A stretch of 32,000 bases of DNA, from the NCBI RefSeq assembly GCF_003044035.1, contig NZ_NVQC01000008.1, positions 60,001-92,000 of the forward strand, given 5' to 3'. This document shows positions 17,763 to 25,679 of the stretch, piece after piece. Within the stretch, counting starts at the first letter, position 1. The number at the start of each line of letters is the position of its first letter. This DNA is from Candidatus Methylomirabilis limnetica. GTDB taxonomy: Bacteria > Methylomirabilota > Methylomirabilia > Methylomirabilales > Methylomirabilaceae. The notes beneath the pieces are model-generated. The model searched no databases, was not told the origin of the DNA, and saw only the letters and a list, made by a program, of their open reading frames with translations. Both the position numbers and the translations under genes were made by a program.

Positions 17763-19163
17763 TCAGAACTGATAGATCAACTCGCCCTGGATAGTATTTT
17801 GCGAGTTGGCATTTTTGGTCCCATCGCCTCGGTCAAACACCAATTTATTGTCCCTCGCCTCATCGTGGCGGTACTCAATACTGGCGAAGAGGTGATCGAA
17901 GAGCTTATACCGGCCGGTGAGTGTCGTCTCCCAGACCTCTAGCTTGCTACCCGGCGTTGCGCCTGGGAGCCTGAAGCCATCCTGGTCCCTAAAGTACTCA
18001 CCCCGCACGCCAACCGACAGTCTGTCGGTCACGTCGTAGACGGCATAGGCCGCCACCGCGTGCCAGATCGCGGTCTGGCCGTTATCGACGAAGGCTTCCT
18101 CCTGCCTCCCATAGTCATAGTTCAGTGTGAGGGTCAATGGCGCGATCGGTTTATAGGTGGCGACGAGATCGATCAGGCCTCGCTTTGGGCCATTGCGATT
18201 AATGTCACGAGTAGGGTCGAACGCATTAGAGACTTGCTCAGCCCCCCATGTCCCACCGAGGGTGAGCGTGAAATCTTTCAGGAAGGGGGGTGTGACGGTA
18301 GCCGAACCATGAAACGATTTCCCTCTGTTATTATCGTCGGTATTGTCCCATCCGTTTACGATGCCAAGGGTTGTCGAAAGCCAGTCAGTGACAGGATAGG
18401 TTGCCATCACACCCGTGTGGGTGAAGGGGATAGCGTAGGCGAAGGCCATCGACCGAGAGATATTAAAATTACCGGTCCGCCTGATCACTTCGGCGCCGTG
18501 CAGGGTCACGAACTTTCCGCCTTTCAGGTCCAGGCCCTTGCCGATCGGTACCTTGTAGGTCACATAGGCCTGCGTCAGGTCAAAGGGCTCCGTCTTCGTG
18601 GGATCATCACCGCTGTCGATACCGAGGCCCAGGGAGTGGATCTTCTTCGCGTCCCGTCCAAAAAGTACGTCCACCCCAAAGCCGATTGGTGAAGCCTCGG
18701 TTGTCGGTTTTTCCACATAAAGCTCTGCCTGGTTGATATCAAACTGATTCGCCTTGTCGTCAAAGAGCCTGAGACCGTTGTTCTGACTCTTCGGGTCCCT
18801 AAAGTTATAGTTGTAAGACACGGCGACGTGCCCTCCAAAGTTCCAGTCCTTCATGGTGGAGAGCAGAGGCACAGTCTTGATCGTCTCCTCAATGCTTCTG
18901 ACCCGATCGCTGATGCTCTGCGGAGCCTCTGCTGCTCCAGCGAGGGCCCCGGGTGCCGGTGCGGCAGCCGGAGTCGGTAGAGCCCCAGCCTTTGCGCCAA
19001 TCATGTGCTCCAGTCGCTCCAGCCGTTGCCGCAGCTCTCGAATTTGGCGATCCTTGTCGTCCTCGGCCCATGCCGCAGGTACCGCAACTGCGGCGGCGAG
19101 GAGGAGCACTCCACCAATTACTAATCTGGTTACCGTCAGATGCTTCAACTTCCGCATTCTCAT
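17763..19163 (-). CDS. Outer-membrane beta-barrel porin (OmpL-like / porin-2 type) with N-terminal coiled-coil
   Basis: Signal peptide ending 'AVPAAWA', coiled-coil 'DRQIRELRQRLERLEHM', alternating beta-strand pattern, and the C-terminal OMP signature '...GELIYQF'. SD GAGGGGAGGGA lies upstream. Confidence 0.8.
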   Translation of the reverse strand: MRMRKLKHLTVTRLVIGGVLLLAAAVAVPAAWAEDDKDRQIRELRQRLERLEHMIGAKAGALPTPAAAPAPGALAGAAEAPQSISDRVRSIEETIKTVPLLSTMKDWNFGGHVAVSYNYNFRDPKSQNNGLRLFDDKANQFDINQAELYVEKPTTEASPIGFGVDVLFGRDAKKIHSLGLGIDSGDDPTKTEPFDLTQAYVTYKVPIGKGLDLKGGKFVTLHGAEVIRRTGNFNISRSMAFAYAIPFTHTGVMATYPVTDWLSTTLGIVNGWDNTDDNNRGKSFHGSATVTPPFLKDFTLTLGGTWGAEQVSNAFDPTRDINRNGPKRGLIDLVATYKPIAPLTLTLNYDYGRQEEAFVDNGQTAIWHAVAAYAVYDVTDRLSVGVRGEYFRDQDGFRLPGATPGSKLEVWETTLTGRYKLFDHLFASIEYRHDEARDNKLVFDRGDGTKNANSQNTIQGELIYQF

Positions 19164-19231
19164 CGATCCCTCCCCTCATTGGGTGTGACTACTTAGAAAG
19201 TCTCCGATGATCGAGTCTCATGGATATGATT

Positions 19232-19247
19232 CGCAAGAAGCGGGCCA
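19232..19247 (-). promoter_or_regulatory. Sigma-54 (-24/-12) promoter candidate upstream of the porin gene
   Basis: The - strand reads TGGCCC-GCTTC-TTGCG. The GG and GC are at canonical spacing (consensus TGGCAC-N5-TTGCW). It lies ~70 nt upstream of the ATG at 19163. Confidence 0.5.
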
Positions 19248-19501
19248 GCTTTCGCTAACGACAGATGACCGGTAGTGGCAGCGACCTGAAGCAGAGCTAG
19301 GAAGAGGGGGGAGCAGTGAAAAAACGTAGTGTTAGGCGACGAGCTTTGAAGGAAAATGGTTCGCGGACGGTTGTGCAAGAAGGGGAGTTCCTTACAAAAA
19401 TGAAAAAATTGTCATATTCGCCAGAATGGCGAGTGGTTATCTTCTAGGCAGGGCGACAAGGGTGATGCGCAAGAGAGATGCATAAGAGGGGTGCGACGTA
19501 G

Positions 19502-19522
19502 GGGCAGCCCTCGTGGCTGCCC
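19502..19522 (-). terminator. Hairpin downstream of the tlpA-like gene
   Basis: GGGCAGCC-ctcgt-GGCTGCCC, 7 nt after the stop. No U-tract. Confidence 0.35.
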
Positions 19523-19528
19523 TCATTG

Positions 19529-20074
19529 CTACCTCAAGAGGCTCTCAACCAGTGTCCTCGAAGCCTTGTTGGCCCAGTCATGGTATCCAATGTCTTTGGC
19601 GCGAATGATGCCTTGGCGGTCGATCAGGATCGAGACAGGAAGCCCGATAAGCCGGAACTTCCGACTGGCCTTCATATCAGTGTCGAGCGCTACGGGAAAG
19701 GTGAGGCGAAGCTCCTTAATGAAGTCGCGGATCTCTTGCTGTGCGTCCGGCTCGATGTTGACAGCGAGGATCTCCAACCCTTTTGCCTTGTACTCGGAGT
19801 AGACCTGCTGCATCGTCGGCATCTCTAGCCGGCAAGGGGGGCACCAGGTAGCCCAGAAGTTGATCAGCACAACCTTCTGGCCCCGAAACTCCGAGAGCCG
19901 AACGGTGTTTCCCTCAAGCGTCTTCAGCGTAAAGTCAGGCGCGAAGTGTCCCTCTTCGGGTCGCACATCATTAGCCCATACGTCAGTTCCTCCTGGCGTG
20001 CCACCTATAACGAGTCCGAGAATGATGGAGATGATCGCTATCTGGGATAGTAAACAGCAGAGATAGCGTCTCAT
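19529..20074 (-). CDS. TlpA/ResA-like periplasmic thiol:disulfide oxidoreductase
   Basis: N-terminal membrane anchor. Thioredoxin motif 'FWATWCPPCRLEMP' and redoxin fold pattern. Confidence 0.87.
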   Translation of the reverse strand: MRRYLCCLLSQIAIISIILGLVIGGTPGGTDVWANDVRPEEGHFAPDFTLKTLEGNTVRLSEFRGQKVVLINFWATWCPPCRLEMPTMQQVYSEYKAKGLEILAVNIEPDAQQEIRDFIKELRLTFPVALDTDMKASRKFRLIGLPVSILIDRQGIIRAKDIGYHDWANKASRTLVESLLR

Positions 20075-20283: not shown

Positions 20284-20338
20284 CGCCGCAGGTCAAATCG
20301 TGATTGACATTAGGGGGTGAAACGATTGACCTGCGGCG
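20284..20338 (+). promoter_or_regulatory. Long inverted repeat upstream of the Crp/Fnr gene
   Basis: 'cgccgcaggtcaaatcgt' -(20 nt)- 'acgattgacctgcggcg'. The ~17-bp arms have one bulge, and the loop contains TTGACA. It ends 64 nt before the ATG at 20402. Confidence 0.4.
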
Positions 20339-20401
20339 TTCGTCCGCCTACAATAAGACCGGCGTTCGGGACTTCCCCCGTTTCGTTATCCCAGGGTAGC
20401 C

Positions 20402-21067
20402 ATGTTGCCAGAGCAGTTGAAGTCGATTCCGTATTTCCAGGACCTCGATGCGCGAGCACTGGAGGGTATCCGGGCTCACGCATTTGAGGTACGGTTGCAG
20501 AAGGGACACGTTCTCTTTACGGAGGGGGAGCCGGCCCAGGCGATGTACGTGATTCGGTCCGGTAAGGTCAAGATCTTCAAGCTGTCCCCCGACGGACGCG
20601 AGCAGGTCCTCCGGATTGCAGAGGCCGGAGATTGTTTCAATGAGGTCCCGATCTTCGATGGTGGGCCGAACCCCGCCAACGCCCAGGCGGTGGAGCCGGC
20701 GGCGCTCTGGGGCATCCGGCGGGAGGAGATGCGGCGCCTGGTAGAGGAGCACCCGGCGATCGCGATCGGCTTTCTCAAGGCGTTTGCGGGGAAGCTTCGC
20801 TACTTCACCCGCAAGGTGGAGGACCTGTCCTTCCGTAGCGTGACAAGCCGCGTGGCCAAGTTCCTCTTGGAGATGGCCGAGGATGACGGCAGAGGAGGTC
20901 TGCGCCTGAAGCAGCAGTTCACGCAACAGGAGATAGCGTCCGTTGTGGGAACGGCCCGAGAGATGATCGGCCGGGCCTTCAAGGCCCTGGAAAAGGAAGG
21001 AGCCATCAAGCTCGATCGCCACCAGGTCATCATCGTAAGCCGGGCTGCCATGATTCGCCTGCTCTGA
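20402..21067 (+). CDS. Crp/Fnr-family transcriptional regulator (cNMP-binding-like domain + HTH; no N-terminal Fnr Cys cluster)
   Basis: 221 aa. 'GEPAQAMYVIRSGKVKIFKLSPDGREQVL' beta-roll pattern. C-terminal HTH 'TQQEIASVVGTAREMIGRAFKALEKEG'. Confidence 0.9.
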   Translation: MLPEQLKSIPYFQDLDARALEGIRAHAFEVRLQKGHVLFTEGEPAQAMYVIRSGKVKIFKLSPDGREQVLRIAEAGDCFNEVPIFDGGPNPANAQAVEPAALWGIRREEMRRLVEEHPAIAIGFLKAFAGKLRYFTRKVEDLSFRSVTSRVAKFLLEMAEDDGRGGLRLKQQFTQQEIASVVGTAREMIGRAFKALEKEGAIKLDRHQVIIVSRAAMIRLL

Positions 21068-21189
21068 CCTCACCGTTGCCCTTCTTGTAATGCGTGAGAC
21101 TAAAGTCGCATACACCTCTGAATCACCCCCCTATGCTAGAATGGACGCTGAGCAAACAACAACCTGAGAAAAAAGGAGGCAAAAGACTT

Positions 21190-21804
21190 ATGACCAACGA
21201 GAGCAGTTGCCATGAAGGGCACGTCAGTCCAACGCCCGAGCCAAAGACCTGCGACACCCAATCGACGGGTACGCCAATGCCAGAGGTACTTCGAGATCTA
21301 CCCGATGATCGCGTGGTAATCCTGGATATTCGTGAACAGGTGCGGGGAGGCGAAGAGCCGTTTCAGAGGATCATGCAAACCGTCATGTCCCTCCGAGACG
21401 ACCAGGTACTCAAGCTATGTAATATCTTCGAGCCGATACCGCTTTACGCTGCCTTGGCGCAACGGGGTCTCGCTCACTGGACGCAGCGGCGTGGCCCAGA
21501 AGATTGGTGCATCATGTTTTATCGAGCGGGGGCCGAGGCCGCGACCTCTCCGGCGTCCTGCACCTCGTCGAGGCCAGCGGAGCCTGTCGGGGACGCCATC
21601 GTTGTTGACGCCCGTGGACTAGAGCCACCACAGCCGATGGCGAAGATCCTGGAGAATCTCCCTCAGATTGCAGCGGGTGGAAAGATCCTGGCCATGACCG
21701 ACCGGCGGCCGATGCTGCTCTACCCGAAGTTGGAGGAGCGGGGCTTCGTCTTCTCCACCGAGGAAACGACGCATGGCTGGTTCGAAACCCGGATCTGGAA
21801 GTAG
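21190..21804 (+). CDS. Tandem DUF2249-domain protein with Cys/His-containing N-terminal tail
   Basis: There are two DUF2249-like modules: 'VILDIREQVRGGEEPFQRIMQTV...FEPIPLYAALAQRG' and 'VVDARGLEPPQPMAKILENLPQ...DRRPMLLYPKLEERG'. I prefer the ATG at 21190 because of a perfect SD (AAAGGAGG) upstream. The ORF-track start at 21094 is unlikely. Confidence 0.75.
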   Translation: MTNESSCHEGHVSPTPEPKTCDTQSTGTPMPEVLRDLPDDRVVILDIREQVRGGEEPFQRIMQTVMSLRDDQVLKLCNIFEPIPLYAALAQRGLAHWTQRRGPEDWCIMFYRAGAEAATSPASCTSSRPAEPVGDAIVVDARGLEPPQPMAKILENLPQIAAGGKILAMTDRRPMLLYPKLEERGFVFSTEETTHGWFETRIWK

Positions 21805-23098
21805 CGCCCCGGCCAGGCTGCCATCCCTCTGGGTGCCGCTACGCTATTTTGTGACGGCTCAGGTAGCCTTCGTGACCGCCATGCTCTGGGCGCCATGGCA
21901 GGTCAGCAATCTGCTGGACTTTTACTATCAGGGGCATGACCTCGCCCTCACCCATCTGCTGACTCTTGGGTGGATCACGATGACGATCATGGGGGCGTCG
22001 TTCCAGTTGGTCCCGGTCGCCCTGGAGACCACGCTGTGGAGCGAGCGCCTGGCCTGCTGGCAGTACTGGATTATGCTGCTCGGTGTCGCGATTATGGTGA
22101 GCCATTTCTGGATCGGTCATCACGAGGGTTTGGCCTTCGGCGCCGGTCTGGTGCTGGTTGCCGTGACACTTTTCCTGATCAATATGGGGCGCACACTGTG
22201 GCAGCTCCCCCACTGGGACATCGTGGGGCGACACATGGCGGCTGCGCTCGTCTACCTGGCCTCCACCGTGGTCATGGGAAACCTGATGGCGCTCGATAAG
22301 ATTTTCGACTTCTTAGGAGGTCAGGTCCTGACGACGATACACGCCCACGCCCACCTGGCCGGCATCGGCTGGGTCACCATGATGATCTTCGGGGCGAGCT
22401 ATAAACTGATCCCCATGTTCAGCCTGAGTGAGCTTCGCGATGAGCGGCTGGCCTACTGGGAGTTCTGGCTGCTCCACGTCGGTCTAGTCGGCCTCTACAT
22501 GACGCTCCTGCTGCAAAGTCCGTGGGCCACGCTGTTCGCTCTCCTGATCGCCACAGCGGTGGGCCTGTTCCTCTGGACGATGCGCGATGTCATGCGGGTA
22601 CGCCGGCGTCCGCGATTGGACTGGGGGCTGCGGCATACTATGAGCGCCATGACCACGCTCGCGATCGTGACGATCCTGGGTCTATGGCTGAGTACCGGTT
22701 GGCTCCCGAGCGATGAGTTTGCCGCCCGGCTGGCCTTTGGCTATGGGGTCCTGGCACTCCTGGGCTGGGTCTCCGCCATGATCATCGGCCTGATGTATAA
22801 GATCATCCCGTTCCTGGTTTGGCACCACCGTTACAGCGATCTCATAGGACTGCGGTCTGTTCCAGCCGCCGCCCAGATTCTTGGTGAGTCAACGCCTCGG
22901 ATGGAGTTCTGGCTGCTCTATGCGGGTATCGCGATGACCGTTACCGGAGTGATCTTCACGTCCTGGCTGCTCGTGCAGGTGGGTACGCTCGTGTTGGCAC
23001 TGGCGGGTCTGACGTTCGCCGTCGCCGTCTGTCGGATCTACTGCCATCTGGTTCCACGCCTGACGCCGCTTCCGGAGGCGCAGATTGTGGGAACATAA
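21773..23098 (+). CDS. 12-TM His-containing integral membrane protein with three-fold internal repeat (distantly heme-copper-oxidase-subunit-I-like or NnrS-like; function unknown)
   Basis: 441 aa and highly hydrophobic. The motif H-x-L-x-x-x-GW(I/V)(T/S)(M/A)(T/M)I(M/F/I)G(A/L)(S/M)(F/Y)(Q/K)(L/I)(V/I)P recurs at aa ~60, ~193 and ~325. 'ERLA(C/Y)W(Q/E)(Y/F)W' recurs ~25 aa after it. The gene overlaps the preceding gene by 32 nt. Confidence 0.75.
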   Translation: MAGSKPGSGSSAPARLPSLWVPLRYFVTAQVAFVTAMLWAPWQVSNLLDFYYQGHDLALTHLLTLGWITMTIMGASFQLVPVALETTLWSERLACWQYWIMLLGVAIMVSHFWIGHHEGLAFGAGLVLVAVTLFLINMGRTLWQLPHWDIVGRHMAAALVYLASTVVMGNLMALDKIFDFLGGQVLTTIHAHAHLAGIGWVTMMIFGASYKLIPMFSLSELRDERLAYWEFWLLHVGLVGLYMTLLLQSPWATLFALLIATAVGLFLWTMRDVMRVRRRPRLDWGLRHTMSAMTTLAIVTILGLWLSTGWLPSDEFAARLAFGYGVLALLGWVSAMIIGLMYKIIPFLVWHHRYSDLIGLRSVPAAAQILGESTPRMEFWLLYAGIAMTVTGVIFTSWLLVQVGTLVLALAGLTFAVAVCRIYCHLVPRLTPLPEAQIVGT

Positions 23099-23120
23099 GA
23101 CCCGCAGTTGATCCGCTTGG

Positions 23121-23288
23121 AGAATGACCGACCTCGCACAAGCTACGGGGTATCGTCTTCTGTTCTGGCCCGTCATTCCGTGCTTGACACGCCTGCCCCG
23201 TACTTGATGCGGGGGAATCCAGTCGGGTCCTCTGGATACCGGCTTCCGCCGGTATGACGAACTCGGGGCAAGCCGCGGGGAATGAACC
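23121..23288 (-). repeat. Multi-hairpin dispersed repeat ('VIPAEAGIQ / ARNDG' pseudo-peptide family), copy A
   Basis: The reverse complement shares 'cgtcataccggcgg-aagccggtatccagagg-cccgactggattcc...gtgtcaagcacggaatgacgggccagaacagaagacgatacc' with 30384..30527. It carries an extra hairpin module CCCCGcatcaagtaCGGGG. Confidence 0.75.
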
Positions 23289-23340
23289 CCCCTCAGTAGG
23301 TTCAAGAAGTGAAGGTACTAAAGGTACATGAAAAGGAGGC

Positions 23341-23685
23341 ATGATGACGGAACCAGAAACATCACCAGTGACTGAAGAGCAGATCTACACCACGCTCCGA
23401 AAGCTCATTGATCCGGAATTAGGAGTCAACATCGTGGATCTGGGCCTCGTCTACAACGTACAGATTGATGATGGCGAGGTCACCGTCCGTATGACCCTTA
23501 CCACACGCGGCTGCCCCCTGCATGGCACTTTCGTCCAGGCGATCGAGCGCAGCCTCAATGAGCTGGACGGCGTGACCGGCGTGACCGTCGATGTCGTGTG
23601 GGAACCCGCCTGGAATCCGGACATGATCACCCCTGAGGGGAAGCAAACGATGTCCAGCGCTGGACGTGGTGGGCCCGCATGGTGA
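23341..23685 (+). CDS. DUF59 / SufT-like (MIP18 family) Fe-S cluster assembly protein
   Basis: 'IYTTLRKLIDPELGVNIVDLGLVYNVQIDDGEVTVRMTLTTRGCPLHGTF...' is the canonical DUF59 pattern. The SD AAGGAGG lies immediately upstream, so the ATG at 23344 is also possible. Confidence 0.87.
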   Translation: MMTEPETSPVTEEQIYTTLRKLIDPELGVNIVDLGLVYNVQIDDGEVTVRMTLTTRGCPLHGTFVQAIERSLNELDGVTGVTVDVVWEPAWNPDMITPEGKQTMSSAGRGGPAW

Positions 23686-24755
23686 CGCCAGCGTTGACGG
23701 TCGATACGGTTATCGCGGCGCTTCGGCAGATAAAGTACCCGGGGATGAGTCGCGACATCGTGTCTATCGGTGTGGTGAAGGATACGCAACTGGATGGCGC
23801 TGACGTGTACCTCGACCTCCAGGTCCCGACGGAGGATCGCGAGGTCATCGCCAAGGTGGAGGCTGCGGTTCGCGAGACGCTCGCCCGCGTGCCTGGGATC
23901 GGTGATATGCGGATCCAGATCGGCCCACGCCCTGCATCTCCGGATTCCGCGCCCGGACCGTCTCCGCTCCCTGGCGTTCGGCGTATCATCGCCGTCGCTT
24001 CAGGTAAAGGCGGTGTGGGCAAGACGACTGTATCCGTCAACCTGGCCTTGGCCCTGGCGCAGTCGGGGGCTGCGGTGGGCTTGCTGGATGCCGACATCTA
24101 CGGGCCGAATGTTCCGCGGATGCTGGGCGAGCCGGGCCGTCCCAAGGCGGATGAGGGCAAGATTGTCCCGCTTGTGCGATACGGCCTGAAGGTGATATCG
24201 GTGGGGTATCTGCTGGGGGATCGGTCGCCGATAATCTGGCGTGGGCCTTTGGTGGCCCAGGCCTTGCGCCAACTCCTGCATGATGTACGGTGGGGCGAGC
24301 TGGACTACCTGATCGTAGATCTTCCCCCAGGGACGGGGGACGCCCAGTTGACCCTCGTACAGTCCGTACCGTTGACCGGTGGGGTCATCGTGACTACCCC
24401 CTCCGCCGTGGCCCTGATGGACGCAGAGAAAGGCCTGCAGATGTTTCGTGAGGCCCGCGTCCCGATTCTGGGCATTGTGGAGAACATGAGCTACTTTATC
24501 TGTCCCCACTGCCAGGGAGAAACCGACATCTTCAGCCGGGGCGGTGGACGTACGGTGAGTGAATCGCTTGGAGTGTCTTTCCTGGGGGAGATCCCCATCA
24601 ACCCGGCTATCCGCGAGGGCGGGGATATCGGCGCGCCCGTTGTCGTGGCGAAGCCGGAGTCCCCCGAAGCGCTGATCTTCCGCAATCTCGCGGAAAAGGT
24701 TCGCCTGGAGGCCGAGGCTGCCGCCGTGGCGATGCCTCAGGTGATCATCCGCTAA
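23679..24755 (+). CDS. Mrp/NBP35/ApbC-family P-loop Fe-S cluster carrier ATPase with N-terminal DUF59 domain
   Basis: Deviant Walker A 'ASGKGGVGKTT', 'VDLPPGTGD', and the CxxC cluster-ligand motif 'ICPHCQGETDIF'. Its start overlaps the previous stop (ATGGTGA). Confidence 0.93.
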   Translation: MVTPALTVDTVIAALRQIKYPGMSRDIVSIGVVKDTQLDGADVYLDLQVPTEDREVIAKVEAAVRETLARVPGIGDMRIQIGPRPASPDSAPGPSPLPGVRRIIAVASGKGGVGKTTVSVNLALALAQSGAAVGLLDADIYGPNVPRMLGEPGRPKADEGKIVPLVRYGLKVISVGYLLGDRSPIIWRGPLVAQALRQLLHDVRWGELDYLIVDLPPGTGDAQLTLVQSVPLTGGVIVTTPSAVALMDAEKGLQMFREARVPILGIVENMSYFICPHCQGETDIFSRGGGRTVSESLGVSFLGEIPINPAIREGGDIGAPVVVAKPESPEALIFRNLAEKVRLEAEAAAVAMPQVIIR

Positions 24756-24794: not shown

Positions 24795-25679
24795 ATGTCA
24801 GCAAGCTATGCAACAACCGTCGATGCCCGCATCCTACCGGTCCCGCAGAAGCACCCAACCATCTTCCGTGCCTTCGATGGGCTGGCGGTCGGGACTGCCA
24901 TGCTCTTGGTCAACGACCATGATCCCAAGCCGCTTTACTACACATTCGCCGCAGAGCGGGCTGGGGAGTTCGAATGGCGCTATCTGGAGAAGGGTCCAGA
25001 GGTGTGGCAGGTGGAGATCAGCCGGATTGCCGATGCCACAGGCAGACAGGCGCCCCCTGATACAATGGGCTGTGGTGGACTCCACGCGCACCACGAACAT
25101 CACGATCATCACGCGCACCAGCATGCCCACACCGGTTCTCCGACCCAGATCCTCAAGGACGAACATACCCTGATCCTTGAGGCTTTGGATGGGGTGGAGC
25201 GCAAGCTCGCCGCATTAGAGTCCGGCGCCGCCCCGGATCGAGCCTATTTCGAGAAGGCGGTAAGGTTTATCCGAACCTTCGCTGACGAGTGCCATCACGG
25301 CAAGGAGGAGAACCTGCTGTTCAAGACCATGGTGGACCGCGGCTTTCCATTGCAAGGGGGACCTATCGCGGTCATGCTGTCGGAGCACGAAGCCGGCCGC
25401 GGATACATCCGTGAGATGGCCGAGGCCTCGGCGAGCGTGGTGCAGGATAAGGCTGCGACAGAGAAGATCATCCGGAACGGGCGTGCTTACATCCAGATGC
25501 TGCGGCCTCACATCGATAAGGAGAACATGATCCTGTATGCGATGGCGGACAATATGTTTAGCCCTGAGGACCAGGCGGAGATGGGAAAGGCGTTCGAGCG
25601 CTTCGAGACTGAAAAGATCGGCGCGAACGTCCATGAGGAGATGATGACACTACAGGCGGAGTTGAAGGCGGGCGCCTAA
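24795..25679 (+). CDS. DUF2249 - His-rich linker - hemerythrin (HHE cation-binding) fusion protein
   Basis: N-terminal 'KHPTIFRAFDGLAVGTAMLLVNDHDPKPLYYTFAAERAGEFEWRYLEKGPEVWQVEISR' (DUF2249). Linker 'HAHHEHHDHHAHQHAH'. Hemerythrin-type ligand spacing 'LKDEH...', 'CHHGKEENLLF', 'MLSEHEAG', 'HIDKENMILY'. SD AAGGAGGAAG. Confidence 0.88.
   Translation: MSASYATTVDARILPVPQKHPTIFRAFDGLAVGTAMLLVNDHDPKPLYYTFAAERAGEFEWRYLEKGPEVWQVEISRIADATGRQAPPDTMGCGGLHAHHEHHDHHAHQHAHTGSPTQILKDEHTLILEALDGVERKLAALESGAAPDRAYFEKAVRFIRTFADECHHGKEENLLFKTMVDRGFPLQGGPIAVMLSEHEAGRGYIREMAEASASVVQDKAATEKIIRNGRAYIQMLRPHIDKENMILYAMADNMFSPEDQAEMGKAFERFETEKIGANVHEEMMTLQAELKAGA

Follow-up and report, generated by a model that had tools for sequence, protein, structure and literature searches.

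A probably non-catalytic three-unit homologue of heme-copper oxidase subunit I encoded between DUF2249 and DUF59 genes in Candidatus Methylomirabilis limnetica

Introduction

Sequence-detectable evolutionary units of four transmembrane (TM) helices in the heme-copper oxidases (HCOs) and their 12-TM homologues were reportedly described by Pei, Li, Kinch and Grishin (Protein Sci 2014), who are said to have recognised single-unit and three-unit 'HCOH' families, NnrS among them, to have proposed a single heme for most three-unit families, which carry two conserved His, and to have found these proteins in the contexts of denitrification, nitric oxide (NO) detoxification and DUF2249 genes. That study is cited for the linkage of DUF2249 genes with genes of the HCO superfamily (PMC11218638) and for the trimer-like core of the HCOs (PMC4602095). 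Here we analyse a gene for a 441-residue membrane protein (positions 21773-23098, + strand) in a 32,000-nucleotide stretch of DNA from Candidatus Methylomirabilis limnetica (contig NZ_NVQC01000008.1, positions 60,001 to 92,000), which we call the window and in whose numbering the coordinates of this locus are given. The protein is a homologue of HCO subunit I, and with moderate confidence we take it to be a non-catalytic, non-respiratory, heme-binding, three-unit HCO homologue of the NnrS type that works with DUF2249 and DUF59 proteins under NO stress or in denitrification.

The window protein matches the three-unit HCOH proteins in having three homologous 4-TM units in one chain and a pattern of two conserved His (H61 and H192), and its family matches them in its NO/denitrification context with DUF2249 neighbours. 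A DUF2249 gene adjoins the HCO-like gene in about 95% of genomes, and the family is therefore almost certainly one of the families covered by Pei et al. (2014); we found nothing further in the literature on 'HCOH', or on NnrS together with DUF2249. The three-unit HCO homologue is real but already known in kind. A first-pass annotation of this DNA had implied that 4-TM repeats visible in the sequence were novel, which does not hold, as they were reportedly published by Pei et al. (2014). The one-unit ligand shift, the coupling of H194 and Y324, the His or Met at position 111, the DUF59 fusions and the operon statistics presented below may or may not be new.

NnrS is a heme- and copper-binding protein that shields iron-dependent metabolism from NO, and is not known to be coupled to DUF59 or DUF2249. 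It can be likened to the window family as a 12-TM, NO-responsive membrane protein outside the respiratory complexes, with a comparable NO-stress genomic setting, whereas the window family matches the COX1 profile much better than that of NnrS.

Results

The open reading frame is intact from ATG to TAA, and its product matches Pfam COX1 (PF00115) with 60.3 bits against a cutoff of 34.8; the same profile is matched above threshold by 59 of 60 family members. A search of PDB sequences with the family profile retrieved CcoN of a cbb3-type oxidase (3mk7_A, E = 1.2e-8), and phmmer with the single 441-residue sequence gave no match in the same database. Unit 2 of the protein (see below) matches the helix-X region of COX1 on its own (profile positions 341-399); a unit-3 profile found no oxidase among the PDB sequences. 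From 60 homologues AlphaFold2 gave a model (predicted local distance difference test, pLDDT, 89.7; predicted template modelling score, pTM, 0.89) that Foldseek aligned to cbb3 CcoN over its full length with TM-scores of 0.72-0.74, and the top matches were all subunit I of cbb3, aa3, bo3 and ba3 oxidases, together with NorB, again at full length (TM-scores 0.61-0.74). The protein is a divergent member of the HCO superfamily with the 12-helix, pseudo-threefold HCO fold. The assignment to the oxidase superfamily, offered at first pass as a hypothesis, is thus borne out at the level of the fold and of Pfam, for a probably non-catalytic protein.

Hydropathy and the AlphaFold2 model both give 12 TM helices arranged as 4+4+4, the topology predicted earlier, with a short extra loop helix in the third group (residues 366-370). 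The HCO topology is supported because the positive-inside rule fits the loop between TM8 and TM9, RVRRRPR.

Cbb3 CcoN (3mk7, 9g6b) and the window protein share the 12-TM fold at a sequence identity of about 14%, and they have in common the helix motif H-x-H-x4-G-W...G..Y.L.P, as found in helix X, and the placement of the His ligands at equal membrane depth. In contrast, the internal repeats are far better kept in the window family, which has neither the His triad of CuB, nor a His in TM10, nor CcoO and CcoP partners. Its closest relatives in sequence (84-98% identity) are from NC10/Methylomirabilis, where they are labelled in the source records as 'cbb3-type cytochrome c oxidase subunit I' or as hypothetical. 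At E <= 1e-30 the family comprises 974 representative clusters (50% identity), with relatives in at least 571 species genomes.

Unit 1 (residues 15-146, TM1-4; 21815-22210, + strand) carries the invariant His61 (codon 21953-21955). Unit 2 (residues 147-280, TM5-8; 22211-22612, + strand) carries an H-x-H motif made of the invariant His192 (22346-22348) and of His194 (22352-22354), which is restricted to a subfamily. Unit 3 (residues 281-441, TM9-12; 22613-23095, + strand) presents Tyr324 (22742-22744) at the position of His192, and has a 16-residue cytoplasmic insertion with conserved W350, Y354 and P364. Translation confirmed the reading frame and all eight motifs quoted in the first-pass annotation at exactly the positions given there, with motif A at residues 58-82, 191-216 and 323-347 and motif B at residues 91, 224 and 375. 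The GW pairs at 66/67, 199/200 and 331/332 recur with a period of 133/132 residues. The earlier remark on a His ahead of motif A, present in the first two units and missing from the third, is literally true; unit 3 has Tyr324 there.

The homology of the units is apparent even in the single sequence, in which Smith-Waterman scores against composition shuffles reach z = 13.9 for unit 1 versus 2, 7.7 for 2 versus 3 and 4.3 for 1 versus 3. With family profiles, hhalign gave a probability above 98% for each of the three pairs (E = 1.3e-14 for unit 1 versus 2, 5.1e-14 for 1 versus 3 and 4.8e-16 for 2 versus 3), to be compared with E = 0.08-0.47 for forward versus reversed profiles. When two-helix hairpins were compared all against all, the six in-register pairs alone were significant (E = 1e-5 to 5e-14), while all nine out-of-register pairs had E = 0.06-0.5. 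The repeat unit is therefore of 4 TM helices, present in three copies, and the reversed-profile and out-of-register controls reject a compositional artefact of TM segments. The three 4-TM units are homologous to one another. The triplicated scaffold of 3 x 4 TM helices proposed at first pass is supported by hydropathy, the model and hhalign, and its repeats are statistically significant.

The same annotation had suggested that the triplication could be evolutionarily young, which we could not support. Units from 60 proteins were grouped by nearest neighbour, and in 180 of 180 tests the neighbour was the unit at the same position in another protein. Identities are 27-32% between same-position units across species and 19-20% between different units, whether these belong to the same protein or to different ones. 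The triplication is therefore ancient and older than the radiation of the family, and the units are simply well preserved. Concerted evolution of the units was also considered, and is rejected by their grouping according to position.

Trimerisation of a 4-TM module has been proposed to yield an HCO-like bundle of 12 helices (PMC4602095), and one unit of the window protein corresponds to this module, as in the single-unit HCO homologues and in homotrimers of the MAPEG/YgdD type. In the window protein, in contrast, the units are fused and specialised, with H in unit 1, HxH in unit 2 and Y in unit 3. Weak Pfam matches to DUF2871, which we take to be a family of small membrane proteins, were seen in 3 of 60 family members (best E = 7e-4), and DUF2871 is a candidate for a free-standing single 4-TM unit related to the repeats of the window protein.

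Conservation was assessed in 129 diverse relatives with 22-38% identity to the query. H61 in TM2 and H192 in TM6 are kept in all of them, and are the sole invariant polar residues. H194 (70%) and Y324 are each present in 91 of the relatives, and H425 in 58. The TM histidines put forward earlier as possible heme or metal ligands are conserved as expected in the case of H61 and H192, and less widely in that of H194. The two extra HH pairs ('IGHHEG' and 'VWHHRY'; residues 116/117 and 351/352) are not conserved in this sample, and a role for them is not supported.

The six canonical His ligands of the HCOs have two or three counterparts only. TM10 has no His, no counterpart of the helix-VII HH pair is conserved in TM3 or TM7 of the 129 relatives (a His is found at position 110 in none, and at position 111 in 17), and no CuB-type His triad is present among the conserved residues of the family. 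The NCBIfam cbb3 model PRK14485 scored 17.4 bits against a cutoff of 1080, with no other oxidase model matched, and genes for CcoO, CcoP, NorC and CoxB were absent from the window and from four related loci (L001, L004, L005 and L007). A true cbb3 oxidase was thus rejected on its His ligands, its NCBIfam score and its subunit genes alike.

Position 111 (His111 in the window protein, 22103-22105) lies at the periplasmic end of TM3, and is His in NC10-type members (28/60) and Met in Verrucomicrobia-type members (28/60). These residues occur there only inside the subfamily with H194 and Y324. In the shifted profile alignment described below the position falls on His258, a CuB ligand of CcoN, and His111 may be an extra ligand.

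To place the conserved residues relative to the oxidase ligands, we counted in cbb3 alignments, with the ligand numbering of Pseudomonas stutzeri, how many residues separate each His from the Pro that is conserved in the G..Y.L.P motif. The CuB ligands are His207, His257 and His258 (PMC3578206). In TM2, the His of CcoN is at 22 residues and H61 of the window family at 20. In TM6, CcoN has a His at 20, and the window family has H192 at 22 and H194 at 20. In TM10, finally, CcoN has His at 22 and 20, and the window family has Y324 at 22. By this count, the ligand pattern of the window family reads as that of the oxidases after a cyclic shift of one 4-TM unit. Alignments of hidden Markov models pair TM2 of the window family with helix VI of CcoN and TM6 with helix X, a pairing that we attribute to the same one-unit shift.

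In the AlphaFold2 model, H61 and H192 each lie about seven residues from the periplasmic end of their helix. Each cofactor pocket of the oxidases takes its '20-type' His from one unit and its '22-type' His from the unit that follows. On this rule H61 and H192 should face one pocket, and H194 and Y324 a neighbouring one. The joint gain or loss of H194 and Y324, which are both present in 87 of the 129 relatives, both missing in 34 and mixed in 8, agrees with such a two-pocket assignment, as does the like placement of H61 and H192 near the periplasmic ends of their helices.

The HCO-like gene stands in a cluster on the + strand headed by a regulator of the Crp/Fnr family (20402-21067; Pfam cNMP_binding and HTH_Crp_2). 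Between them lies a gene for a DrpB-like protein with two TusA-like DUF2249 domains (21094-21804; Pfam), which shares 32 nucleotides with the beginning of the HCO-like gene and whose true start is probably downstream of 21094. The HCO-like gene is followed on the same strand by genes for a SufT-like DUF59/FeS_assembly_P protein with a CP motif (23341-23685; Pfam), for an Mrp/ApbC-type iron–sulfur (Fe-S) carrier ATPase with an N-terminal DUF59 (23679-24755; Pfam ParA/NUBPL, 335 bits, and FeS_assembly_P), and for a DUF2249-hemerythrin fusion (24795-25679; Pfam) with weak similarity to YtfE/RIC (NCBIfam YtfE, E = 1e-5, below cutoff).

The part of this arrangement around the HCO-like gene is tight and widely conserved. 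We surveyed the 80 best-matching genome loci, all from different species, mostly of Methylomirabilota, Verrucomicrobiota, Ignavibacteriota and Bacteroidota, with single loci labelled Binatia, Sulfotelmatobacter, Deltaproteobacteria and Nitrospiraceae. A DUF2249 gene is found directly 5' of the HCO-like gene in 75 of these loci and a DUF59 gene directly 3' of it in 74, in both cases on the same strand, and the order DUF2249 (DrpB-like), HCO-like gene, DUF59 constitutes a conserved operon. A Crp-like gene occurs within 4 kb in 30 of the 80. Moreover, in four distant relatives (P0189, P0240, P0244 and P0260; for example L005, 5001-6611) the HCO-like protein continues at its C-terminus, on the cytoplasmic side, into a fused DUF59 domain. 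Two further variants were seen: one relative (P0226) is fused to DUF3108 in place of DUF59, and another (P0126, 862 residues) has an unexplained extra half.

Locus L001 also contains genes for YgbA_NO, a NirK-type nitrite reductase, SCO1 and Crp, and locus L004 one for NifU, with an Mrp gene following as in the window. The gene upstream in L004 (3373-3936) has DUF1858, TusA and DUF2249 matches, the architecture of DrpB. In Thermus, nitrate respiration is regulated by the DUF2249 proteins DrpA and DrpB, the latter composed of a DUF1858 and two DUF2249 domains (PMC6282519), and in Haloferax DUF2249 genes are induced under denitrification (PMC11218638).

Some further features of the window were noted. 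Between the HCO-like gene and the DUF59 gene there is a non-coding gap of 242 nucleotides (23099-23340); in 75 other genomes the two genes almost adjoin each other (median gap about 30 nucleotides). The gap has no Rfam match and folds no better than its shuffles (z = -0.94), and an Rfam scan of the whole window found nothing. Upstream of the Crp/Fnr gene lies an imperfect inverted repeat, GCAGGTCAA(A)TCG (20288-20300) and CGATTGACCTGC (20323-20334), whose right arm overlaps a promoter-like TTGACC-17-TACAAT (20326-20354). The repeat, in which no canonical FNR box is present, may be an operator. Immediately upstream, on the opposite strand (17763-20074), there are genes for an OmpL-like beta-barrel porin (BBP2) and a secreted AhpC/TSA-type thiol peroxidase or redoxin, which may belong to the same stress neighbourhood.

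Discussion

Building on the observed fold, repeats, conservation, operon and fusions, we infer a membrane protein in which a single heme b would be held by H61 and H192 between units 1 and 2. The pocket would be the pseudo-symmetry equivalent of the heme site of the HCOs, displaced by one unit relative to the cbb3 oxidase. In the subfamily of the window protein, H192-x-H194 together with Tyr324 of TM10 could form a second, adjacent site, which can be likened to the way in which helix X bridges two hemes in oxidases. The family lacks a CuB-type His triad and therefore presumably does not carry out respiratory reduction of O2 or NO. Instead, the membrane heme would bind or sense NO (or O2), while the cytoplasmic DUF2249, DUF59/Mrp and hemerythrin partners would aid in protecting or rebuilding iron and Fe-S centres, and under denitrification or nitrosative stress a signal may also reach the neighbouring Crp/Fnr regulator.

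Several observations weigh against this role. The geometry of H61 and H192 and the heme pocket are deduced from the ligand register and pseudo-symmetry, and the model as a whole superposes collinearly on the oxidases, TM2 falling on helix II; as this conflicts with the shifted motifs, the evolutionary mapping is ambiguous. The association of H194 with Y324 has a Fisher p of 3e-22 that ignores kinship among the relatives and is uncorrected for phylogeny. The partner proteins point in two directions, to Fe-S handling and to regulation, with nothing to discriminate between them, and NC10 bacteria also have a stand-alone paralogue (43-45% identity; L003, 8001-9380, and in L013 and L014) without DUF2249 or DUF59 neighbours. 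A search for FNR/Dnr boxes gave 14 matches against 7.5 expected, none of them in the promoter region, and these boxes were therefore rejected as evidence. Finally, the window protein has no match to NnrS (PF05940) at E <= 1.

The kinship with NnrS raised by the first-pass annotation consequently stands in part. Matches are found in some relatives, with 18-26 bits against a cutoff of 28; these come from the clade of the stand-alone NC10 paralogue and are collinear, residues 112-355 aligning with profile positions 89-301. The link is thus remote, traceable in the paralogues below the Pfam threshold and missing for the window protein itself.

More tentatively, the protein could embody the active-site pattern of the oxidases rotated by one 4-TM unit, giving a copper-free di-heme or heme/metal centre wired on its cytoplasmic side to a DUF59 Fe-S carrier, a proposal that we consider doubtful. 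The His pair of TM2 and TM6 would then fill the pocket that is free of cofactor in all respiratory oxidases, and the H-x-H motif with Tyr324, joined in some clades by His or Met at position 111, would add a second heme or metal site in the NC10/Verrucomicrobia subfamily. If true, this would make the protein an uncharacterised membrane module coupling NO chemistry to the maintenance of iron–sulfur clusters, and a living intermediate in the distribution of oxidase cofactor sites among the three ancestral units.

Rather unlikely, in our estimation, is a purely regulatory function, in which the protein would be a membrane sensor or anchor whose heme conveys NO, O2 or redox information to the DrpB-like DUF2249 protein. 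The latter would in turn modulate the neighbouring Crp/Fnr regulator (Dnr type), the Fe-S partners being secondary. The DUF2249 gene directly upstream in nearly all loci and the Crp/Fnr gene at the head of the window cluster are consistent with it, as is the situation in Thermus, where DrpA and DrpB control DnrS/DnrT-dependent expression and DrpB binds to the membrane without a TM segment of its own (PMC6282519). However, the linkage to DUF59 is equally tight, it is DUF59 that is physically fused, most loci have no Crp gene, and the drpAB genes of Thermus are not reported beside an HCO-like gene.

A channel or transporter without cofactor, conducting iron, copper, nitrite or NO along a path lined by the His, is less probable still. 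The HCO fold does have three pores, and the partners DUF59, Mrp, NifU, TusA-like DUF2249 and SCO1 (in L001) are all concerned with metal or sulfur trafficking. Yet the invariant His are in the exact register and at the same membrane depth as the heme and CuB ligands of the HCOs, NnrS, the sole 12-TM relative known to have been characterised, carries heme, and no transporter family was matched in Pfam. To a catalytic CcoN of a cbb3-type oxidase, or another respiratory HCO or NO reductase, we give hardly any credence, since the source annotation, the COX1 score and the CcoN chains as best structural matches are set against the deficient His ligands, the failed cbb3 model, the missing ccoO, ccoP and norC genes and the single-sequence phmmer search without a match.

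Returning to the reading that we favour, a heme-binding HCO homologue of the NnrS type, the window family has kept the 4-TM building block of the oxidases unusually well, a point already made in the literature. The label 'cbb3-type cytochrome c oxidase subunit I' is routine for this family, and it can inflate inferences of aerobic respiration in such anaerobes as NC10, Ignavibacteria and Verrucomicrobia. The main practical value of our analysis lies in correcting this annotation and in flagging an uncharacterised NO/Fe-S membrane module. The protein, as yet untouched by experiment, would partner DUF2249 (DrpA/DrpB-type) and DUF59 proteins in the physiology of NO and of denitrification, and in NC10 (Methylomirabilis-type) bacteria NO is an intermediate whose handling is central.

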